From assembly GCA_010405405.1 (NCBI GenBank), contig MU004230.1:3630627-3688741 (forward strand): a stretch of DNA of 58,115 nucleotides, given 5' to 3'. The DNA is from Microthyrium microscopicum. Taxonomy: Eukaryota. The position numbers were made by a program, and so were the translations under genes. Positions within the stretch are counted from its first letter, which is position 1; every line of letters starts with the position of its first letter. Under the pieces are notes generated by a model that saw only the letters and a list, made by a program, of their open reading frames with translations, made no database searches and was not told the origin of the DNA. Of this stretch, positions 13,441-58,115 are shown piece by piece.

Positions 13441-14580
13441 TTATCATCTCAGCCTTGTCGACGTCGCCTCGCGCAAGGCGACGTTGATAAGGCTGAAATG
13501 ATTATCAACGAACAAGAGATCTCCATGACTACCCCCACCAGCTTCCAACTCCATGTTCTATCGACTGTCAAGTCCAAGAGTTTGTTCACACCGCAATTAG
13601 ATGGATTCGAAGCTTCATCAACGAACAAGAGATCTCCATGACCACCCCCACCAGCTTCCAACTCTGTGTTCTATCGACTGTCAAGTCCAAGAGTTTGTTC
13701 ACACCGCAATTAGATGGATTCGAGGCTTCATCATCGAACAAGAGATCTCCATGACCACCCCCACCAGCTTCCAACTCCGTGTTCTCTCGACTGTCAAGTC
13801 TAAGAGCCTGTTTACGCCCGCAATCAGAANNNNNNNNNNCGAACAAGAGATCTCCATGACCACCCCCACCAGCTTCCAACTCCGTGTTCTCTCGACTGTC
13901 AAGTCTAAGAGCCTGTTTACGCCCGCAATCAGAAGAGCCTGTTCCACGCCGCAATTGAATGGATTCGATGATCATCACCAAACAAGAGATCTCCATGACC
14001 ACCCCTACCAGCTTCCAACTCCGTGTTCTCTCGACTGTCAAGTCTAAGAGCCTGTTTACGCCCGCAATTAGAAGAGCCTGTTCCACGCCGCAATTGAATG
14101 GATTCGATGATCATCACCGAACAAGAGATCTCCATGACCACCCCCACCAGCTTCCAACTCCGTGTTCTCTCGACTGTCAAGTCTAAGAGCCTGTTCACGC
14201 CCGCAATTAGAAGAGCCTGTTCGCGCCGCAATTAGGTGGATTCGAGACTTCTTCGTTCTTGGTACGTTACTCTCTCTAGTAACAGGCCGTAATCTGATGC
14301 TAACGATAGTTAGGAAGCCAAACCAAAAAGCCAGCCTCTCATCCAAATCGACATCCCGCCTGTACGTTCTCTTAGTAAGTCTTTTCTCCACGCCAAAACA
14401 CTATGTTATTGTTCTTCCGCTGACGAAGTTCAGGAGAATACTGAGCCAAATATCAAGCCTTCTGCCAAAATCAACATCCCACCTGTTCATGCGACCAAAG
14501 TTTCTACCACAATTGTCAACCAACCTGTTAAAATACTGGATCAGGATTGGACCTTTTTGCCAAATCAGCATCCCGCTTCT
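13441..14580 (+). pseudogene. Inverted, fragmented copy of exons 2-3 of the DUF3712-like gene at 17464-20315
   Basis: Encodes AQGDVDKAEMIINEQEISMTTPTSFQLHVLSTVKSKSLFTPQLDGFEAS (47/49 aa identical to exon 2) and ENTEPNIKPSAKINIPPVHATKVSTTIVNQ (exon 3). No exon 1, frame-shifting repeats, short introns 14262-14313 and 14375-14433. Confidence 0.85.
13511..14260 (+). repeat. Tandem array of at least 6 units (113 and 139 bp) derived from a coding exon; spans an N gap at 13830-13839
   Basis: The anchor aacaagagatctccatgac recurs at 13511, 13624, 13737, 13842, 13981 and 14120. Confidence 0.9.
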
Positions 14581-17463: not shown

Positions 17464-20315
17464 CTACCTGAAAATCTGTTAGTATAAGATTACATTATCG
17501 CGGCTGCTCTGACAAAACCATGTGATCTTCGGGGTAAGATCACTTGGCGTGCTTTGGAAATCATCTAATGCTTTGCGAACCACCACATACCATCGCACTA
17601 CCTTTGGTAATCATAATACTCAGGAGATTCTGAGGTCTCTTGTTGAATCTGATCAACTACGATGGTAGCCATGGAATGCGATGGGAACCAGCAGATGTGA
17701 TGGCAATTTCCACCGAAAGGGGTGAAGGTCCTGTGTGAGGGATTATCTTACCGGCTTCGTCGCATATTCATGCCGGCCATGTCTCCGGCTGCGGACGAGG
17801 AGGGTTTGGCTGCAGCTGCGGAAGAGGCCTCAGGAGCGGCAGTTGCAGATGAAGATGCGCTTGATGAGGAAGAGCTGCTGGAGCCAGAATCGACACCACC
17901 GCCGGTGCCGCTTCCAGAATCACCAAACAGAGAGCTGAGCCCTATCGCGGTCAACGGGGCCTTGAGATCGAGGTTGAGATTGACTGGGGCAGCAGCCTGA
18001 AATATGTTAATATAAGTTCTCAAAGAGTGTCATTGCATAACATGATGGAGGAGGCTAAATCATGTTCTTGCAAGAAATGTATAGAGCACTCTAATAGCCA
18101 TCGAACGCGAAAAAAGCCATCGAGTGCGAAAAAGGCCATCGAGTGCGAAAAAAGCCATCGAGTGCGAAAAGAGCCATCGAGTGCTTTGGGGATTACAAGA
18201 TGTCGCCAAGCATTATGATATAGTGCAGGAAATTCTTACCATCGCAGCCTCGAAGTACGGCAGATGTTGACCGGCCTTGTTCGTCACGGAAATCGTTTTG
18301 GCTGTGATTGGGAGAATGCCGCTCTTGGTCTTGTCGGCAGAAAGGATAGTGATAACAGCGGCTTGGTCGGAGCTGGACGCCATTTCGAAGTAGTTCTTGC
18401 CTAAACATTGTCAGTATGAAATCGCGATTTTCAAATCAATATCGATCGAAATTCATTCATCTGTTTGTGGCAAAACCCCATGACACTTTATGGCTCCCAT
18501 CGCACGCGATGGGAGCCATTGAGTGCTGCAGAGAAATTTCGCCAAACCAGGCCAGTTGGACTTTTTGAAGAAATGAACGAATCCATGGAGACCGTCACAT
18601 CAAATGAGGGCCCCAGTATGCGATCAGCAATGTAGTAGTTGGCTGCCATCCAATGGGATGTCCGCCACCAGATATCGTGGTCGGTATCAGATGCGATGGA
18701 AAAATTGGGGGTTGGCATAGGAGCATCTTACCTGGCCTGAGAACGACATTGTTGATAGTAGTGTTGCCGATAGGGGTGCCGTTGGAAGAAATATCTTGAA
18801 CAAGGTCGCCAATTTCAAGGGTCATCACGCTAGGATTGGGGATCATGATCCTGCCTTGCATGTTGCTGCCGTCGGGGAACTTTGTGAGGGAAACGTTGAT
18901 ATTGGAAACCTCGATTCCAGAAAGTTTGTTCAGACCATCCAACTCAGGAGCCTTGTTGAAGTCGACGGTTGTAACTGGCAAAGCACCTAAAATTGGTCAG
19001 AATCAGATTACAATCAGAGCTGACACGCCTGAAACGACCAAATGGTCTCTTTGTGGTGAAATCGTGAAGCTGCCATCGCATTCGGTGGGAGCCACAGCAT
19101 TCGGTGGGAGCCACAGCGCTCGATCGGAATTTATTTGCATGGGAAAATCTTACCTAGGTGCAACTTTGTTCTTCCTCGAAGTCCCATACGGAAGTGCTTG
19201 GCAGTAGCCACCAGGATATTGTATCTCTTGAATTGTTCCTGGTCAAGGATTTCAACATGTTGATTAACAATTGTGGTAGATACTTTGGTCGCATGAACAG
19301 GCGGGATATTGATTTTGGCGAAGGGCTTGATGTTAGGCTCAGTGTCTTCCTGAAAGCTGTTAGTGTACTATTTTTGAAAACTTATTGGATGATAGCCATC
19401 GAATGCCATGGCAGTCATCGAATGCCATGACAGCCATCAAATGCCATAACAGCCATCGAATGCCATAACACCCATCGAATGCCATAACACCCATCGAATG
19501 CCATAACACCCATCGAATGCCATAACACCCATCGAATGCCATAACACCCATCGAATGCCATAACACCCATCGAATGCCATAACACCCATCGAATGCCATA
19601 ACACCCATCGAATGCCATAACACCCATCGAATGTCATGACAGCCATCGGATGCCACGACAATCACCCCGTGTCGTTGGAGGCAGTTGAAGGCATAGACTT
19701 GACGATTGGGGGTCTTACCAGGAACAGTGAAGCCTCGAACCCATCTAATTGCGGCGTGAATAGACTCTTTGACTTGACTGTGGAAAGGACTCGAAGTTGG
19801 AAGCTAGTAGGGGTGGTCATGGAGACCTCTTGCTCGTTTATGATCATTTCAGCCTTGTCGACATCGCCTTGGGCGATTCTTGGTAGGCCAACGTAGGTTC
19901 TAATATCTGGTCAACCATAATTCTCGTTTCTCCGCTCTTAGCATTCGCAATACATGTGATTTCAGAAACACAGGATTTTGCTAGAGCTCACCGTTTAATC
20001 AGAGCCGCACCAGACACCATGTAGACACTGTGGGGACTGCAACTCTCGGTCAAACACCATCCCGGGTTGTACTCTCACCGTGTCCTGGAATCGAGAACTT
20101 TCGGACGAGTAAAATATAAAAACTTACAAGAGTAATGAGAGTAGCAGAGTGCCGATGACGAAGTTGAGTAGGTGTGCCCACCAATACTTCCTAAAGTGCT
20201 GTTTGAATTTGCTCTGTTGTGGGACCGCCCTGGTTTGAGTGTTGGCGGTGTTGTCATTATATTCGACGGTTTGTGGTTTATACCCTTTGTTATCATTGTA
20301 GCCTGGTTCTGCCAT
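17464..20315 (-). CDS. DUF3712-like type II membrane protein
   Basis: Exons 20315-20128, 19899-19719, 19349-19154, 18986-18732, 18400-18240, 17996-17752 and 17467-17464 splice in frame. N-terminal TM (KYWWAHLLNFVIGTLLLSLLL); IPNPSVMTLEIGD and NVVLRPGKNYF motifs recalled as typical of the family. Confidence 0.78.
18097..18184. repeat. 19-bp minisatellite (GCCATCGAGTGCGAAAAAA, ~4.5 units) in intron 5
   Basis: Read directly from the sequence. Confidence 0.9.
18490..18519. repeat. Perfect 14-bp inverted repeat in intron 4
   Basis: ATGGCTCCCATCGC-ac-GCGATGGGAGCCAT. Confidence 0.9.
19072..19128. repeat. 19-bp minisatellite (3 units) in intron 3
   Basis: gccatcgcattcggtggga / gccacagcattcggtggga / gccacagcgctcgatcgga. 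Confidence 0.85.
19394..19659. repeat. 19-bp minisatellite (ACCCATCGAATGCCATAAC, 14 units) in intron 2
   Basis: 266 bp = 14 x 19 bp; homogeneous core with diverged end units. Confidence 0.95.
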
Positions 20316-24715: not shown

Positions 24716-26891
24716 TGTTGGGTGAGTGGGTGGTGCTTGGCCAGGCTGGATTGGGGGAGATGGATATTGTGAGTTTTGGGAGATGTTTTTTGATGTTTCG
24801 ATATTGGGGATTGGGGAGTTTGCCGAGGTAGGTCGGTTTATGCATGGTGGGCAATGTGCATTTGCATCCAGGGTTCGGCTGTACTCTACTCTTAGGTTGT
24901 GCTAAGATAGCTCTTGATTCTCACTTGAAAATTGACTTGGAGAACATATTTACAGGCATTTTTTTGGTGGTCGACATCTTCTTAGTGGTTTTGGAAACAA
25001 TGTCATTGTGCCTCTGAAGTTGATTTCGCATATCAATATGGGGAGATGTCAATAGAATACCCATTGACGATAACTAGTACTACTACATCTATATAGAGAA
25101 TAGATAAGTTTCACGAGAGTCAAAGTAACTGAACATCTTTCATTCCCTATCGGAATGTTAGGTTATCGTTGGACATAGTAGACTAAACGAGGACCAAGTC
25201 GTACCAAACCAGCCCCTTCTTGGGTTTTTCGAGCCGACACTTATGATTTTGAGATCGATTAAAGAGATACCTAGAAGAATATCAAGTAACTTTTCTTTTA
25301 ATCGTGTTCCTTCCTCGTGCTTACGAAATACTTAAAATTGTTTGTCGTCAAAATGTCGATTGCTTCGTGGCGTCAAACGAAGCGACTCGTTTATGGGCAG
25401 TCTTTTAGATGACCTATAATCCGCGCATATCAACTACGATGTCTATCCATCTACCACATATTTCCATGAAATAGATGTTATTTAACTCAACTCACTCCAG
25501 TATCAAATTGAACAAAGCAGTAAGGCTACTCCACCCAGAAATGCACGAGTCCAATCAAGCTATCGCCCAAAAGGGTTGTGTGGACCCCTTGACCCCTGGA
25601 TATCAGTTTGGCAAATCAGCAGTCAGAGGAGCTTTGAACATGCATCAAAAAGCTCCGGACCGTCCAGCAACCAGGAAGGTCAAATTTCTTTCTTCGCGGC
25701 AGACGGGTAGGTGCGATCCAGCTAGTTTGGTTATGCTTTTTGCATCATGGTTCAGTAGTTTGGAGCGCGGAGTTCTACGACCTTGTGCATTGGTGCTGGG
25801 AATATAATATCTAGAGATTCTCAACAGATAGACGTTTGGGTCATATATTCAGTACTGGGGGGAGTTCCAGCTCAAATCTTTCGACCCCTAGTACCTTTTA
25901 GGATGAACGCTTAATCTTCCGAAGAGCCGTGCGGTGACTGCGAACGGGTGGGTGATTGTGTATGTCGTGTCTATTGGACGCTTTTGATATGTATAGTTGT
26001 CAAACCTCGAAAAGGGATATGCATGACGAAGACTAAGAACCTGGATATCTGCGCATTGCTGAAGGCTTTTGTCGGCGTTGCACTGGCTACTGGAGGTACA
26101 GGTGCATCTGTGGGTTGCAAAATGATAATTTCGCGCATACTACTGGATGCTTGACGAACCAATCCAGCGAGTTGAGCCGCAAGAAAATGCATCGAGTTTA
26201 CTCCAGAGTATGAGTGGATGATTCTGATAGATCCACGTAGACGTCGTGTCGACCAATCGACGGGATGAAATGGCGCGTTCTCATAACTAAGGCTTCTCCC
26301 ATCGCACTGCCTAAAGGAAATTTACTTTGATTCTCAGCGCATTCAATAGGGAGTGGAACAATGTAGGCATCCAATAGGAAATAAAGCATTTGGTCCTAGA
26401 AGGTAGCAGATGGTAGACAGCGCACTTGATGGGAGGGCGCGATTATTCTGTTGACAACTTGACGGGTTGTGGTGAAGATGGTGGCTTTTATTAAAATGGA
26501 ATGGACGCCAATAGTGTCGAGGTTGCTCTTCCCCTTTGTGACACTCACAATGTCCAAGTCTTCAACCTGCACCTTTCCTGTCTCAATCTCTCCACTGTCC
26601 CACCACAAATCTTCTCGATAAAACTATCATCCAAAAGCATATCCTGGCTTAACCTCATGCAATCCTGGCTTCCTGGCGCTACTCCCTGTGCATCCCCTTG
26701 CATGTTGTTGCTTGCTTGTTGCTTGCTACCCAAGGATTACCAGATCACCCTAAGGCCCAGACAGGTACAGTAAACAAGCGAGCAAACTCGATCCCGAAAT
26801 TCAATACCAGTCCCAGTCTGTAGACAATACAGCCGACTCGGGCAATTTACAGCGTAACTTTGTTTCAACTGTCCACTACTTGCAAGCCGCC

Positions 26892-51572: not shown

Positions 51573-52799
51573 GATGGCTGGACCTGTAGAAGAGCGAGAG
51601 TGATTGAATAGACAATAAATAGTTAAGAATGAAATGAAAGAATGAAGAAGCGAGAAATGATTAGGATGTCAACCAGAATGGAATGATTCTTCTTGCAACG
51701 GCAGACATGATGATTGATTTATACCAAAGAGTATAGCCGCTGACAAGGCAGGGTCGATGTCTCAATTGACCCTACATTCCAGCCTCCGAAGCGTAATAAG
51801 ACAGTGAATACGATGGATCCACGAGGTTTACCATGACTCTGGGAATCTCATGCATCCGACCACCAGACGACGTGAACAGTGACGAGTTGTGTACGAATGA
51901 GGCGGACAGCCACAGTCATGAGAATACCATCTTCGAAGATCATCCGAGAGCGGACATGGTGAGGTAAAACAGCAAGCCACGTCTAATTTTGTTGATTGAT
52001 ATCCCGGGGGTTCTACCAGGCTACCTGGATAGGACTCGCAGCCAGAAATTTGGTACTAATGTATCTTTTGAAGATCAAGGCTATACGCATCTATAGCGGT
52101 TAGTTCTCTTAGAGGTATTGAAACACTGAAAGCGCGATGTCACTAAATTTATAGAAGGTGCATTATAATGCCCATACAGACATCATGCTTCAGTGGATTG
52201 CTCGAAGTGATAGTAATATGCTACCAGGAACCAAAAGGCCTAGTTTCCTGGAAAGCCACTGTAGCATTGCTTGAACCAGGTATAGGAGCATTCTCCTTTC
52301 GACTGCGATTACATAGCAGTAAAGATGCGGCTAAAACTCAAGATTAGCAGTGGCGCTTGTTTAATAACTGACTGATCTACATTTCTCGAAATGTTTAACG
52401 CCTCGGGCTTATACATTGGCCGAAACTACGTGTACTCATTGGCAGCAAATCGCCTGTTGAAATGTTTTGAGACAAACACCAGTCATCTTGGCAGACCACG
52501 AGGAGTGAAATTGGCCAGAATCCAGGATTCCAGTCAAGGATTACAGGGAGCTGTTCTTTCCAACGTCCATGGCCTGGGGTGATGGGATCCAGAAACGGAT
52601 TGAGGACAAGGTGAAGGCATGTTGTTCAAGGTTGATGGGTCGCGTGTTCCTAGAGGGTGGTCGTTCGCGTGCTATTGTGTGGCGTTATTCTTGTCATTTC
52701 ATTCGCTAACGAGCTTAAGGGGCAGTTGTTGTTTGGCGAAATTTATCTCAGTGGACTCAGACTCTCTACGGGAAGAAGTCAAACGTTTGTCAAACGTTG

Positions 52800-55700
52800 A
52801 CTAACCCTATTAGGTTAGTTAACTTTTAAAAACGTTTAACCCTCTAAACCTACTAATTATACTATACTAACCTAATTCTTCCTTAAGAGTCTAAGAGGGA
52901 CTTATATATTATATACTATATCTATCTTAGCTTATTCTTAGTTTTATTTATATCTTTAATACGCAAGATCTCTCTTATTATATTTAATTTTATTATCTAA
53001 TTAGTATTTATTACTTTTTAATTACCTATACTACTTACTACTTATTTTTTAATAGTCTTTTTAGCTATTAGTAATATAGTATATTATTATAAAGATTAAC
53101 TTAACTACGCGCCTTATCTACTTACTTATATATTTTATTATAACTATCCTTATAATAATAAATTAGTTATCTTATTCTTTTAACTATACTCTTTCTTCTA
53201 GCTACTTTATATACCCTTTCTTATATAGTATCTACTAATATACTACCTAATAGTACTATATTATTTACTTTAGTACCTACCTCTACTATATTATTAGTTA
53301 TAAATTCTAATCTACTTACTCTTAGTATTTATAATATATTTATAACTAATAAGATACTATATAAGTTTATTTAGTTTATATTAGTTAAAAACGTTTCTTT
53401 TTTATAGTTAATTTATATATTTATTAATTATACTATATATATTAGCAAAATTATTTATATAGAGAATTTACATCTTTATATAGTATAGCTTTAGTATATT
53501 ATACTTATATATACTATAAAGATATTATCTACTTTATTAGCTAAGTATCCTAAGAAAGATTAACTTATTTCTTTTCTTATATTTAAATCTACTCTTAAGT
53601 AAGAGCTCTTCTTTCTTTTAAAAAGGTCTATTTAGTTTAGTAAATTCTCTATAGATATTATTATTAAGGATCTTACTTTCTCTTCTACTATAACTAATAT
53701 AGAAATATATACTTCCTAGTAGATAGTATTCCTTCTTAGGTTAATATGTAATTAGTAATATAATTAGCTAGCTAAAGAAAATACTTTTTATAATGAGATA
53801 ACTACTAAATAAGCTATCTATTATATAATAGTTATAGTTTACTACTTTTAATAGTAATAATAGTTAAATTTTCTTTCTAAAACTCTAAGTATATATCTTT
53901 ATATAACTAGTATAAAGAGATAATTAATAGAATTATTAAATAGAATAGGTATTACGTATAGTTATATTATATCTCTAGATATATTAAATACTATCTTAAA
54001 AGAAGCTAAGGTATATTATTAAAACGTTCCCTTTATCTTATATTTATATATAGCTATTATAAATATTAATATTTAATTATTAGTTACTTTAAAAATATAT
54101 AATTATTTGCTACTACTCTTTAAAACGTTTAAAACATTTAAAACGTTTAACATAATACTAACTCTTTAAATAGTATAAATATTTTAAGAGACTTAAACGT
54201 TTTAAATAATCTTAAATGTTTTAAATAAGTCGTTAAGAAATATTATATAAACTTTATTTCTTACTTTTAAGATATATTATATACTTTCCTTCTTAGTATT
54301 TATTTAGTATTAGCTAATTATATTTTATATCTAGTTATATATATTAATCTTTTTTTAAGCTTTCTTAAAAAGTATAGCTTAAGAAGATAGTAGTTAAGCT
54401 ATAACTTTTAATAACTATAATATATAAAATACTAAGCGTGATAAGGTTAATAATAATATAACTAAATAGCTAAATTTTATAGTAGTAATTCTTATTAAGT
54501 ATTCTTCTATTTCTTAAGAAGGCTTCCTTAAAACTAATTTTAATCCTATTATTCTATTAGATATTAAAACTATATTTAACTTACTTTTTATTTTAAGAAT
54601 TAATATAGATACCTATAAATCTAAATAGTATAGTCTAGTTCTATAATTAGTATTTTTATATAAGTAGCTTTTAGAATAGTATCTAAACCTTTAAAAGAAT
54701 ATATTTAAGGATAATAAGAATAGAGTCTTTACTTAGTTTTTTATAGATATTATCCCTCTAACTACTATTAAATATTTCTAACTTAGTGCTATATATAATA
54801 ATCTTAGTACTAAGGCTAGTACGTATTAGGTATTTTATTAGATATTTTATAACTAATTAGGATTAAAATTATATACTTCTCCTATACTTAATACTAGTAA
54901 GATATTTAACTATTATATTAATACTATATATATAAAAACTAATAAGGATAGACTACCTTTATACCTAATAGTACCTTAGAATATAAGTTATAAAGAGGAG
55001 AATAATTTTTAAACTTATTTATTTCTAGTTTATAGAGATTAGTTATTACTATTAAATAGTTATATTATAAAGACTAAGTAGGTTAAAGCCTATCTATTAT
55101 TTAATTATAAAGATTTTATTCTACTATATCTTAAAAATTAGTATATAGAGTTTAACTATTAATAAGTATTAATATATATATATTTAAGTACTATAAGTAA
55201 TATTTCTTATTTTAATAGAGTTTATATATTAGGTATAAATACTAGTTTCTAAGGACGTTTAATCTCTTTATAAGCTAACCTAAAGTTTAATAAAGTAGGG
55301 CTACTATTACTTTATAGGTTTAGGTTATATATAGAGTCTATCTTTCTATATATTCTTTCTAAAAATAAGTTTTATAAGAGTATTAATAATAACCTAGGGT
55401 TTTATACTAACTAAATTAAGATTAATAATATTATTAATTATCTAACTTTTAATAAGTATATTAGTATTCTTAAGTAAATATAAGATAAGACTTTATCTAA
55501 AGAAGCTTAAAATAGAGGTATATCTTTTATTAGTAACTATAAAGACCTTAACTTTTAAATGTAGTATTAATATCTCTAGGAAGTTTTGCTCTTTCTTTAT
55601 TATAAATAAGTAATTAAAATAAGTAATATTAGTCTATTCTAGTTATTACTTTTATATATAACTATCTTCTTTACTAAGGTAGGCTAATATAAATATATAT

Positions 55701-58115
55701 ATTTTCTATTATACTAGTAATAGTTATTATTACTTAGAGTATATATGCTATAACTTTATAAAGCTATTCTATATTTTACTTTTATTAATTAGAAAGGTAA
55801 TAAAAAGTTATTTAAGATGTNNNNNNNNNNNNNNNNNNNNNNNNNNNNNNNNNNNNNNNNNNNNNNNNNNAGTAATTAATCTAAATAAGAATAAATATAC
55901 TAAGCCTTAGGAGCTTACTATTAGCGCTAGATAGCTATATTTATTACTTAATATCTTTACCTAGTCTAAAGAGAAGCTTTAGGTATTTATTAATAAGTTT
56001 AATAATATCTTTATACTCTCTTTATAGGCTAAAGAGAGTAGGTTTAGACTTCCTAGTAAGAATAATATAGTTAATAATAATATTCCTAGTTTAGATTTTC
56101 TAATATTACGTATAGAGTAACTAGATCTAGATAATAATAATCTTAATACTATAACTAGACCTAATATTAGTAGATTAAATAACTAGATTCTATTTAATCT
56201 TTATATAGAAGAAAATATTAATATAGATAATAATAATAGATTACTTATTAACGTCTATTTTAATAAGTATAATAATAATAGTTTTAAACTTATTAAAGAT
56301 AACCTTAATTATAAGACACTAGAAATTCTTAAGTTTTCTACTCTTAATTTAATAGAAGTATAATATAGAATAATCTAATATCTAGATCCTTTTATAGTAG
56401 TATTATATCTATAGTCTAAATTATATTAGTACTTATAGTAAGGTACGTTTTAGAATATAGTTAGTTAAGACCTATAATAAGATATTAAAGAGGATTAAAA
56501 TTAATATAATACTTTATATATTAGCTCCTTATATTATAATATTTTATAAAACTCCTATAAGTTCTAGTTACTACTATAGTAATTATACTTATATAGTTAT
56601 TTATAAATAACTATCTATTAGCCTTTATTAATATAAGCTAGTTATAGTTTAAAAGTTAATTACTTTAAACTATATACTACTTATATCTTTCTATACTATA
56701 GCGTAGTATTTTTTTTAAGTAGTATAAACTAGTATAAATATTACCTTAGTTATAATTCTTCTACTTACTAATAGTTAGATTAACTTATTAGTTATATACT
56801 AACTATTATTCTTTATCTATATACGCGTAAAGTAGCTATAGATAAGAAATAGTATATAAGTACTTTTACTAAATATATTAGATAATTAGAGCTAATTTAA
56901 TAATATTAAGATACTTTATTTAGTTAAACTATATATATTAAAATATAGATACTTTATTTTAGCTAATATATAGTTTATCCTAGTTTATTTATATATAGAG
57001 AATACCCCTAAGTATTTTATCTATAAACTAAATAGTATAGAAAGATACTTCTTAGACTTTATAATAATTTACTTCTTATTTCTTATTCTTTTTATCCTAA
57101 ACGTTATTACTAAAAACCTTCTTAGTTTTAAGATAATAAAGATATAACTTAAAGGTAGCTAGATAATATTATAATAACTTAATAATATGTATTAAGTCTA
57201 ATATTCTAAACTACCTAGTTATTAAAGTAGTTCCTAATAGCGTAGTATATAGTAAGCTACTCTATTTATTAAGGCTAGTTTTATAGAATTAATTAGCTAA
57301 GTATTAATACTATTAAGATAAATAAAGTATATAGAAAAGTATTTTTTATTCTCCTATTTACTATTACTAATCTATTATTTTTACTAAGTAAATAAACTAG
57401 TTTTAGTACCTAGATAATAAAGCGTCTTTAAGAACTAGTCTTTATTATACTCTTATATAATATTAAACTTATAATATAGGTAAAAACCTTTATACTATTT
57501 ATAGTATAAGACTTAAAATTTATTAACTAAGATCTTAAGAATAAAGTTAGAGTTTATTAGCTTAGAAAGAAACTAGTACTCTTTATAGCTACTATATAAA
57601 GCTAGCTTATTAAATAGCTTTAAGTCTTAAATAATTATGTCTTTACTAAGTAATAATTAAGTCTTACTAGTTTCTTTAGTTGTATTTTAATACTATAATA
57701 AAGCTATTATCTTTAATTAATATAGTGCTTTTAGTTACTTAAGTATCTCTTTATAATCTACTATATAACTAAAAGATCCTAGTTTTATTAAACGTATAGT
57801 AAATAAGAGTTTAAGTTTAGTATATTTAAAATTCTTAATATTAGATAACTAGCCTTAATTAATTTAACTAGGACTATTTTAGCTTATTTATAAACTTATA
57901 CTTAAGGTAGCTAATAATAAGCCTATTCTACTAGGAGCCTATGTTTAAAGTACTTAATAATAAGCCTATAGTAAACTATATATTATTCTTAGAAGTATAA
58001 GGTTTCTATTATTAATTTAGAAGATATTAGTTAGTTAGTATTAGCTAGCTTTTAGTATATTTATAGTTTTTAAAGTTAGTTAAGATTATCTTAAGGAATA
58101 TATTTATAACTATTT
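52800..58115. mobile_element. AT-rich, RIP-degraded repeat block (N gap 55821-55870)
   Basis: Extreme AT content, TpA excess, CpA/TpG depletion, no ORFs; abrupt boundary near 52800. Confidence 0.85.

Follow-up and report, generated by a model that had tools for sequence, protein, structure and literature searches.

Five of the seven introns of a DUF3712 gene in Microthyrium microscopicum appear to be decayed members of a genome-wide introner-like family whose dyad core also occurs in MITE-like elements

We analyzed a 58,115-nt stretch of Microthyrium microscopicum DNA, referred to here as the window. It carries a DUF3712 gene, a partial duplicate of that gene, and a degenerate MITE-like element. 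The features are listed below in window coordinates, with intron positions numbered as in the comparison with homologues.

17464..20315, minus strand: DUF3712 (PF12505) gene, with Pfam matches on two exons
20230..20283, minus strand: 54-nt intron, in-frame, with no dyad and no canonical branch point; skipped in X5 contigs
19900..20127, minus strand: intron 1 (228 nt), outside the intron family (no HMM match; ends score as background), at ancestral position 44.2
19350..19718, minus strand: intron 2 (369 nt), the most decayed apparent family member (17.4 bits, 0/300 shuffles), position 105.0
18987..19153, minus strand: intron 3 (167 nt), the clearest apparent member (89 bits), position 170.1
18401..18731, minus strand: intron 4 (331 nt), apparent member with both ends recognizable (31 bits), position 255.1
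17997..18239, minus strand: intron 5 (243 nt), apparent member aligned over model positions 1–223, position 309.0
17468..17751, minus strand: intron 6 (284 nt), apparent member (35 bits), splitting the last sense codon, at the stop codon
13460..14550, plus strand: partial copy of the DUF3712 gene, inverted and scrambled, with six exon-2 pieces and one exon-3 piece
26262..26455, no strand assigned: degenerate type B MITE-like element with dyad (HMM matches of 6–7 bits; ends placed by eye)

Removal of all seven introns gives a 391-aa product, or 409 aa with the 54-nt intron left in, and one hydrophobic segment is predicted at the N-terminus. The original prediction gave the gene six introns, of 228, 369, 167, 331, 243 and 284 nt. 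All six have GT..AG ends, and each is skipped in contigs of X5, a single run from one study whose RNA nature is a guess. The count, however, was one short, as the 54 nt at 20230–20283, which X5 contigs also skip, had been overlooked. Translated in frame, this 54-nt intron matches a short N-terminal motif of homologue P0008 and may thus be former coding sequence turned intron (exitron-like). Intron 5 is partly retained in X5, with a depth of 74 for the spliced joint versus 12 for the unspliced contig. A public protein of 317 aa (P0001), identical to the window gene's product and likewise from Microthyrium microscopicum, ends inside intron 5. It lacks the Ser/Ala-rich C-terminal part, which is supported by RNA-type contigs and by homologues that align across the intron 5 junction.

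Arrays of a 19-bp unit had been reported for introns 2–6. Tandem arrays are indeed present in intron 2 (13.7 copies at 19396–19655, 95% alike, the unit being a dyad plus a 3-nt spacer), intron 5 (4.7 copies at 18096–18184) and intron 3 (2.1 copies at 19078–19117, or 2–3 units), but introns 4 and 6 contain only one or two isolated dyads. The palindrome reported near 18490 in intron 4 was found, with 13-bp arms at 18490–18519, and the dyad of intron 6 lies at 17669–17684. We trained a 19-mer matrix on 176 units taken from other genes, and it gave 43 matches in the window. Forty-one fell in introns 2–6, none in the gene's exons or intron 1, and the remaining two, which represent one site, at 26415 (14.9 bits). 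Dyad matches with at most two mismatches number 9 in the window versus 1.41 expected, a count reached in 0/100 shuffles. Within the long array of intron 2 the perfect dyad has been lost, and a single match at this threshold remains. No known RNA family was detected in the introns, the one sub-threshold Rfam match being outside them. The motif had been described as confined to this gene's introns. It is absent from the exons, as stated, but is present elsewhere in the genome and near 26262–26455.

Genome-wide, exact copies of the dyad number 179, versus 2 for a reversed control, and one-mismatch copies number 854 versus 59. These counts rule out a gene-specific motif. Unrelated genes harbor many of the dyads in ∼220-nt introns that are homologous from end to end. 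From 23 such introns at other loci we built a family HMM of 223 positions, with the window sequence left out. Mean identity among the 23 is 61% and the maximum 80%, with no near-identical pair; best BLAST matches between family copies are 70–89%, over parts. Similarity to the model extends to the donor and the branch point. In the loci examined from the same genome, 72 matches have definable ends and 55 score at least 25 bits. Excision leaves an open frame for 48 of these 55, which include the 23 seed introns of the HMM, versus 39% of random excisions. An MFS transporter gene (L025, 3350–6420, G000:C3) illustrates the point: its 536-aa frame appears only after removal of seven family introns and three short ones. 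The short introns of this gene are 48–54 nt long and those of genes homologous to the DUF3712 gene mostly 46–70 nt; the family introns of the DUF3712 gene, at 167–369 nt, are longer than regular introns. A genome-wide repeat or transposon part, which the original prediction had named as grounds for its refutation, is thus what we found, with the family spread across the genome.

The core of the family consists of four dyad units, arranged D1-3nt-D2-D3-3nt-D4. Accordingly spaced pairs dominate around 147 anchors, at 19 (56 cases) and 54 (53 cases). The core therefore carries a built-in 19-bp period, so slippage accounts for arrays in separate introns. We agree with the earlier argument that independent slippage could not give the same core five times; the core was inherited from the intron family. 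The dyad also occurs in other settings. Several long introns enclose the element body two or three times over, in tandem or nested (L016 4443–4792, L017 3957–4440, L019 4388–4751, L031 and L041), and a near-perfect dyad lies in apparent coding sequence at L020 3740. Tandem units of ∼130–150 nt, each with a dyad pair, are found in intergenic sequence or within a long intron (L018 3860–4660, L023 6730–7650, L024 4230–4600) and look like a satellite-like form of the dyad module.

Applied to the window gene, the family HMM scored 17–89 bits on introns 2–6, each value reached in 0/300 shuffles, and nothing on intron 1. Matrices for the intron ends, with splice signals excluded, rank introns 3, 4 and 5 above every member of a background of only 54 regex-defined introns and place intron 1 mid-range. 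Intron 3 has a partly deleted 5′ arm; its 3′ arm is intact and alone scores 36 bits (0/300 shuffles). For intron 4, the matrices exceed 54/54 background introns at both ends, and the arm-only HMM result was reached in 6/300 shuffles. Intron 5 scores 7 bits with the arm-only HMM (0/300 shuffles), and both of its ends again lie above all 54 background introns. The corresponding figures for intron 6 are 1/54 and 0/54 background introns and 1/300 shuffles. Outside its units, intron 2 gives no arm-only HMM match, and its ends are weak by the matrices (2/54 and 14/54 background introns). On these sequence comparisons, introns 2–6 are classed as decayed members of a genome-wide introner-like family.

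For comparison, we examined intron positions in 45 homologous loci with 27–53% identity, of which 37 were aligned and eight apparent duplicates left out; 28 have at least one intron. The position of intron 1 (44.2) is common to 10 of the 22 homologous loci that span it. No intron was seen at the positions of intron 2 (105.0; 0/24 spanning loci), intron 3 (170.1; 0/27), intron 4 (255.1; 0/28) or intron 5 (309.0; 0/27, with L185 left out). An intron at 187.1 is present in 25/27 homologous loci and absent from the window gene. The protein alignment has no gap at the junctions of introns 1–4 and is colinear across intron 5. In 176 kb around the 45 homologous loci of other fungi, the family HMM had no match, and one near-match to the dyad was seen. 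By this comparison with distant homologues, introns 2–5 appear to occupy gained positions, in 4/4 testable cases. Against gain by insertion, the homologues are only 27–53% identical, so an ordinary intron could have arisen earlier. Runs X6 and X7 yielded just short pieces, with no empty site from another isolate among them, and so count neither way. In the MFS transporter gene, none of the seven family positions is common to nine distant paralogues, although this comparison is weak; the paralogues have 0–3 introns.

Position 105.0 calls for further caution, because the duplicate fragment has short intron-like spacers there. In this fragment an exon-2 piece repeats with 113- and 139-bp periods, with one 10-N gap, and the spacers at the intron 2 position are 52 nt (14262–14313) and 59 nt (14375–14433). 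Both resemble family ends (1/54 and 0/54 background introns for one, 0/54 and 10/54 for the other). They may be shrunken family copies, or a sign that position 105.0 predates the array.

Family introns are unevenly distributed among genes. Forty unbiased 10-kb stretches (400 kb) contained one family intron and three MITE-like elements. Yet among 39 loci with a match (loci of 3–10 kb, plus the window), 11 have at least two copies, and the family makes up 5/7 introns of the DUF3712 gene and 7/10 of the MFS transporter gene, so a bias to particular genes is real. The nearest relative of a copy lies at the same locus in 6/31 cases (2.0 by chance), and the mean pair score is 46 for same-locus pairs versus 56 for different-locus pairs. 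Since same-locus nearest neighbors account for only 6/31, most clustered copies are, as judged from their sequences, separate insertions. Local copying as the main source of clustering is ruled out by the same figures.

We propose the following history. The element would have been a ∼220-nt intron with a GTAAGATT start, a ∼60-nt arm, the 70-nt core, a second ∼60-nt arm, a branch point and AG. It would have inserted precisely, whole and in sense orientation, into G|G proto-splice-like sites within coding regions, with five such insertions in the DUF3712 gene and many in other genes. After insertion, slippage or unequal exchange would have expanded each copy's own unit variant (to 14, 5 and 2–3 units) as the arms decayed, and the arrays would be by-products, removed by splicing. 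The arrays themselves are probably functionless. Introns 2–6 are thus most probably old copies of one introner-like element with secondary slippage. We infer both the order of events, insertion before slippage, and repeated independent insertions into an 'attractive' gene. A spreading micro-element had been among the original suggestions. Spread is real, but the unit that spreads is the whole intron, on a genome-wide rather than local scale, and the arrays are secondary.

As for how copies are made, family introns favor G|G insertion sites, and no target duplication was evident at 42 intron junctions (repeats of 2.45 nt versus 2.37 nt for re-paired flanks; 337/2000 shuffles). The two arms of the family consensus show an imperfect match to each other, seen by eye and unscored. 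Two introns were folded in all: the predicted fold of the L040 copy has a z of –2.55, with unpaired ends, and the fold of intron 3 does not surpass that of shuffles (z 0.93). We lean slightly toward RNA-mediated reinsertion, that is, reverse splicing followed by reverse transcription or retrohoming. Movement at the DNA level is a serious contender, if a little short of even.

MITEs are non-autonomous TIR DNA transposons, and intergenic relatives of the family resemble them in size (∼190–240 bp) and in their long inverted arms. Elements of type A are ∼236 bp long, with 5-bp direct repeats (4–5 of 5 matching) in 11/17; those of type B are ∼195 bp long, with termini related to type A. Both types have a dyad module in each arm. 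Type A has the TIRs, TSDs, small size and lack of coding capacity that define a MITE. The terminal motif occurs 55 times in the genome versus 0 in the control (L107–L135). In the MITE arms, the 36 nt that follow the first dyad resemble the intron consensus, with 10/14 arms at ≤9/2000 shuffles, although part of this resemblance is due to internal periodicity. Family introns differ from MITEs in having no target-site duplication at the 42 junctions. One element, L132, looks like a chimera with type A ends and a type B interior.

A larger element at L129 1492–2842 (G000:C3:2831407–2832757) shares its termini with type A and is flanked by no dyad-bearing arms: it has a 5-bp direct repeat but no dyad. 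It is 1351 bp long, AT-shifted and RIP-like, with Tc1-like motifs seen by eye only. Tc1/mariner elements duplicate TA, and a 5-bp duplication would itself be unusual for a Tc1-type element. A transposase is unconfirmed in this element: translation in six frames gave no Pfam match, and BLAST found no match either to 20 DDE_3 loci or to L158, the latter comparison possibly having used the wrong frame. These 20 loci contain neither type-A termini nor dyad arrays. DDE_3 matches in the genome number 35, with in-frame stops in 33.

A tentative and rather doubtful extension is that the introns and the MITE-like families come from one element. The four-dyad module would then be a putative transposase- or nuclease-binding array that passed from carrier to carrier, and an introner of ascomycetes would have arisen from, or been mobilized by, cut-and-paste DNA transposon machinery. 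If true, this would provide a visible DNA-transposon link for an introner group described as having neither TIRs nor TSDs. It would also make gene-level hot spots and 52–59-nt end-products a path to ordinary introns.

The existence of MITE-like relatives suggests another history, in which a MITE or foldback module with the dyad jumped into older, short introns. The same module does occur outside introns, in three of the four elements found in the 400 kb of unbiased sequence. Some host introns hold only the core (L005, L024), the arms of intron 2 are weak, and the duplicate fragment has its short spacers at 105.0. But similarity extends as far as donor and branch point, both in the family and in introns 3–6, and the short spacers themselves resemble family ends. 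Moreover, the four testable positions are all missing from homologues, and the intron that is ancestral, intron 1, is the dyad-free one. We therefore consider this history improbable. Still less probable is that one intron was copied within the DUF3712 gene, by duplication or conversion, to yield five related introns. Introns 2 and 5 are mutual best matches, and same-locus nearest neighbors exceed the chance number; yet the intron 2–5 match falls in the arrays, the copies most similar to introns 3, 4 and 6 lie at other places in the genome, and same-locus pairs score lower than pairs from different loci.

The original prediction had also raised the possibility that the arrays are binding sites or RNA hairpins, here taken as selected, with control over this gene's chromatin or splicing. 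Such a putative role would fit the better preservation of the dyad than of the arms, as well as the partial retention of intron 5 in RNA-type contigs. However, the motif is genome-wide rather than confined to this locus, introns hold anywhere between 1 and 14 units, the perfect dyad is gone from the long array, intron 3 has no stable fold, and the homologous loci lack the motif. As for the retention, the weak branch point of intron 5 may be enough to explain it. All told, control by the arrays is highly implausible, and insertion of an introner-like element followed by slippage remains the reading that we prefer.

Introner-like elements (ILEs) of Dothideomycetes are described as multi-copy spliceosomal introns that are longer than regular introns, have canonical splice signals and novel positions, and decay in sequence and length (PMC3609843, PMC4457414). 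Genes 'very attractive for ILE insertion' are also on record (PMC4457414). Like ILEs, the present family comprises many related introns in unrelated genes, with canonical splicing, great length, gained positions and no TSD. Unlike ILEs, it has no near-identical copies (maximum 80%, mean 61%), for which reason we file it as a decayed ILE variant rather than a plain member. Further differences are its four-dyad core, which slips into 19-bp arrays and is common to MITE-like elements, and its share of the introns of single genes (5/7 and 7/10). Three dyad words had no match in four supplementary files of PMC4457414, where the S3 alignments may be lacking or in image form.

Other systems share some of these features. 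In Hypoxylaceae, sister stwintrons and cropped sister introns likewise have internal symmetry, have proliferated, and occupy seamless new sites without flanking duplications (PMC8469720). In contrast to these, symmetry here lies mainly in the central dyad core, and no nested donor stood out in the window introns on unsystematic inspection. Introners of algae and other protists that descend from non-autonomous TIR DNA transposons provide a similar link between intron-forming and MITE-like elements (PMC9860276, PMC12130899). In those cases, however, TIRs or TSDs belong to the intron itself, whereas the window introns lack TSDs and MITE termini and have only the internal module in common with MITE-like elements. 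In PMC9860276, the families of ascomycete introners count as an outlier without TIRs or TSDs, read as RNA-based. The 14 supplementary files of PMC12130899 that were searched, in which sequences may be lacking, contained none of five motif words.

Our literature search found no paper on introners in Microthyrium or describing this family, and a core common to introns and TSD-bearing elements was found in no paper. Such a core, present in TSD-bearing MITE-like elements, provides a handle on how fungal introner-like elements move. Both Gozashti surveys score Microthyrium microscopicum with zero introner families (supplement rows), which shows that surveys relying on identity overlook old bursts. 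Elsewhere in the window, AT-rich blocks (18–22% GC) lie at 1–1000 and 52700–58115; these are probably RIP-decayed repeats.
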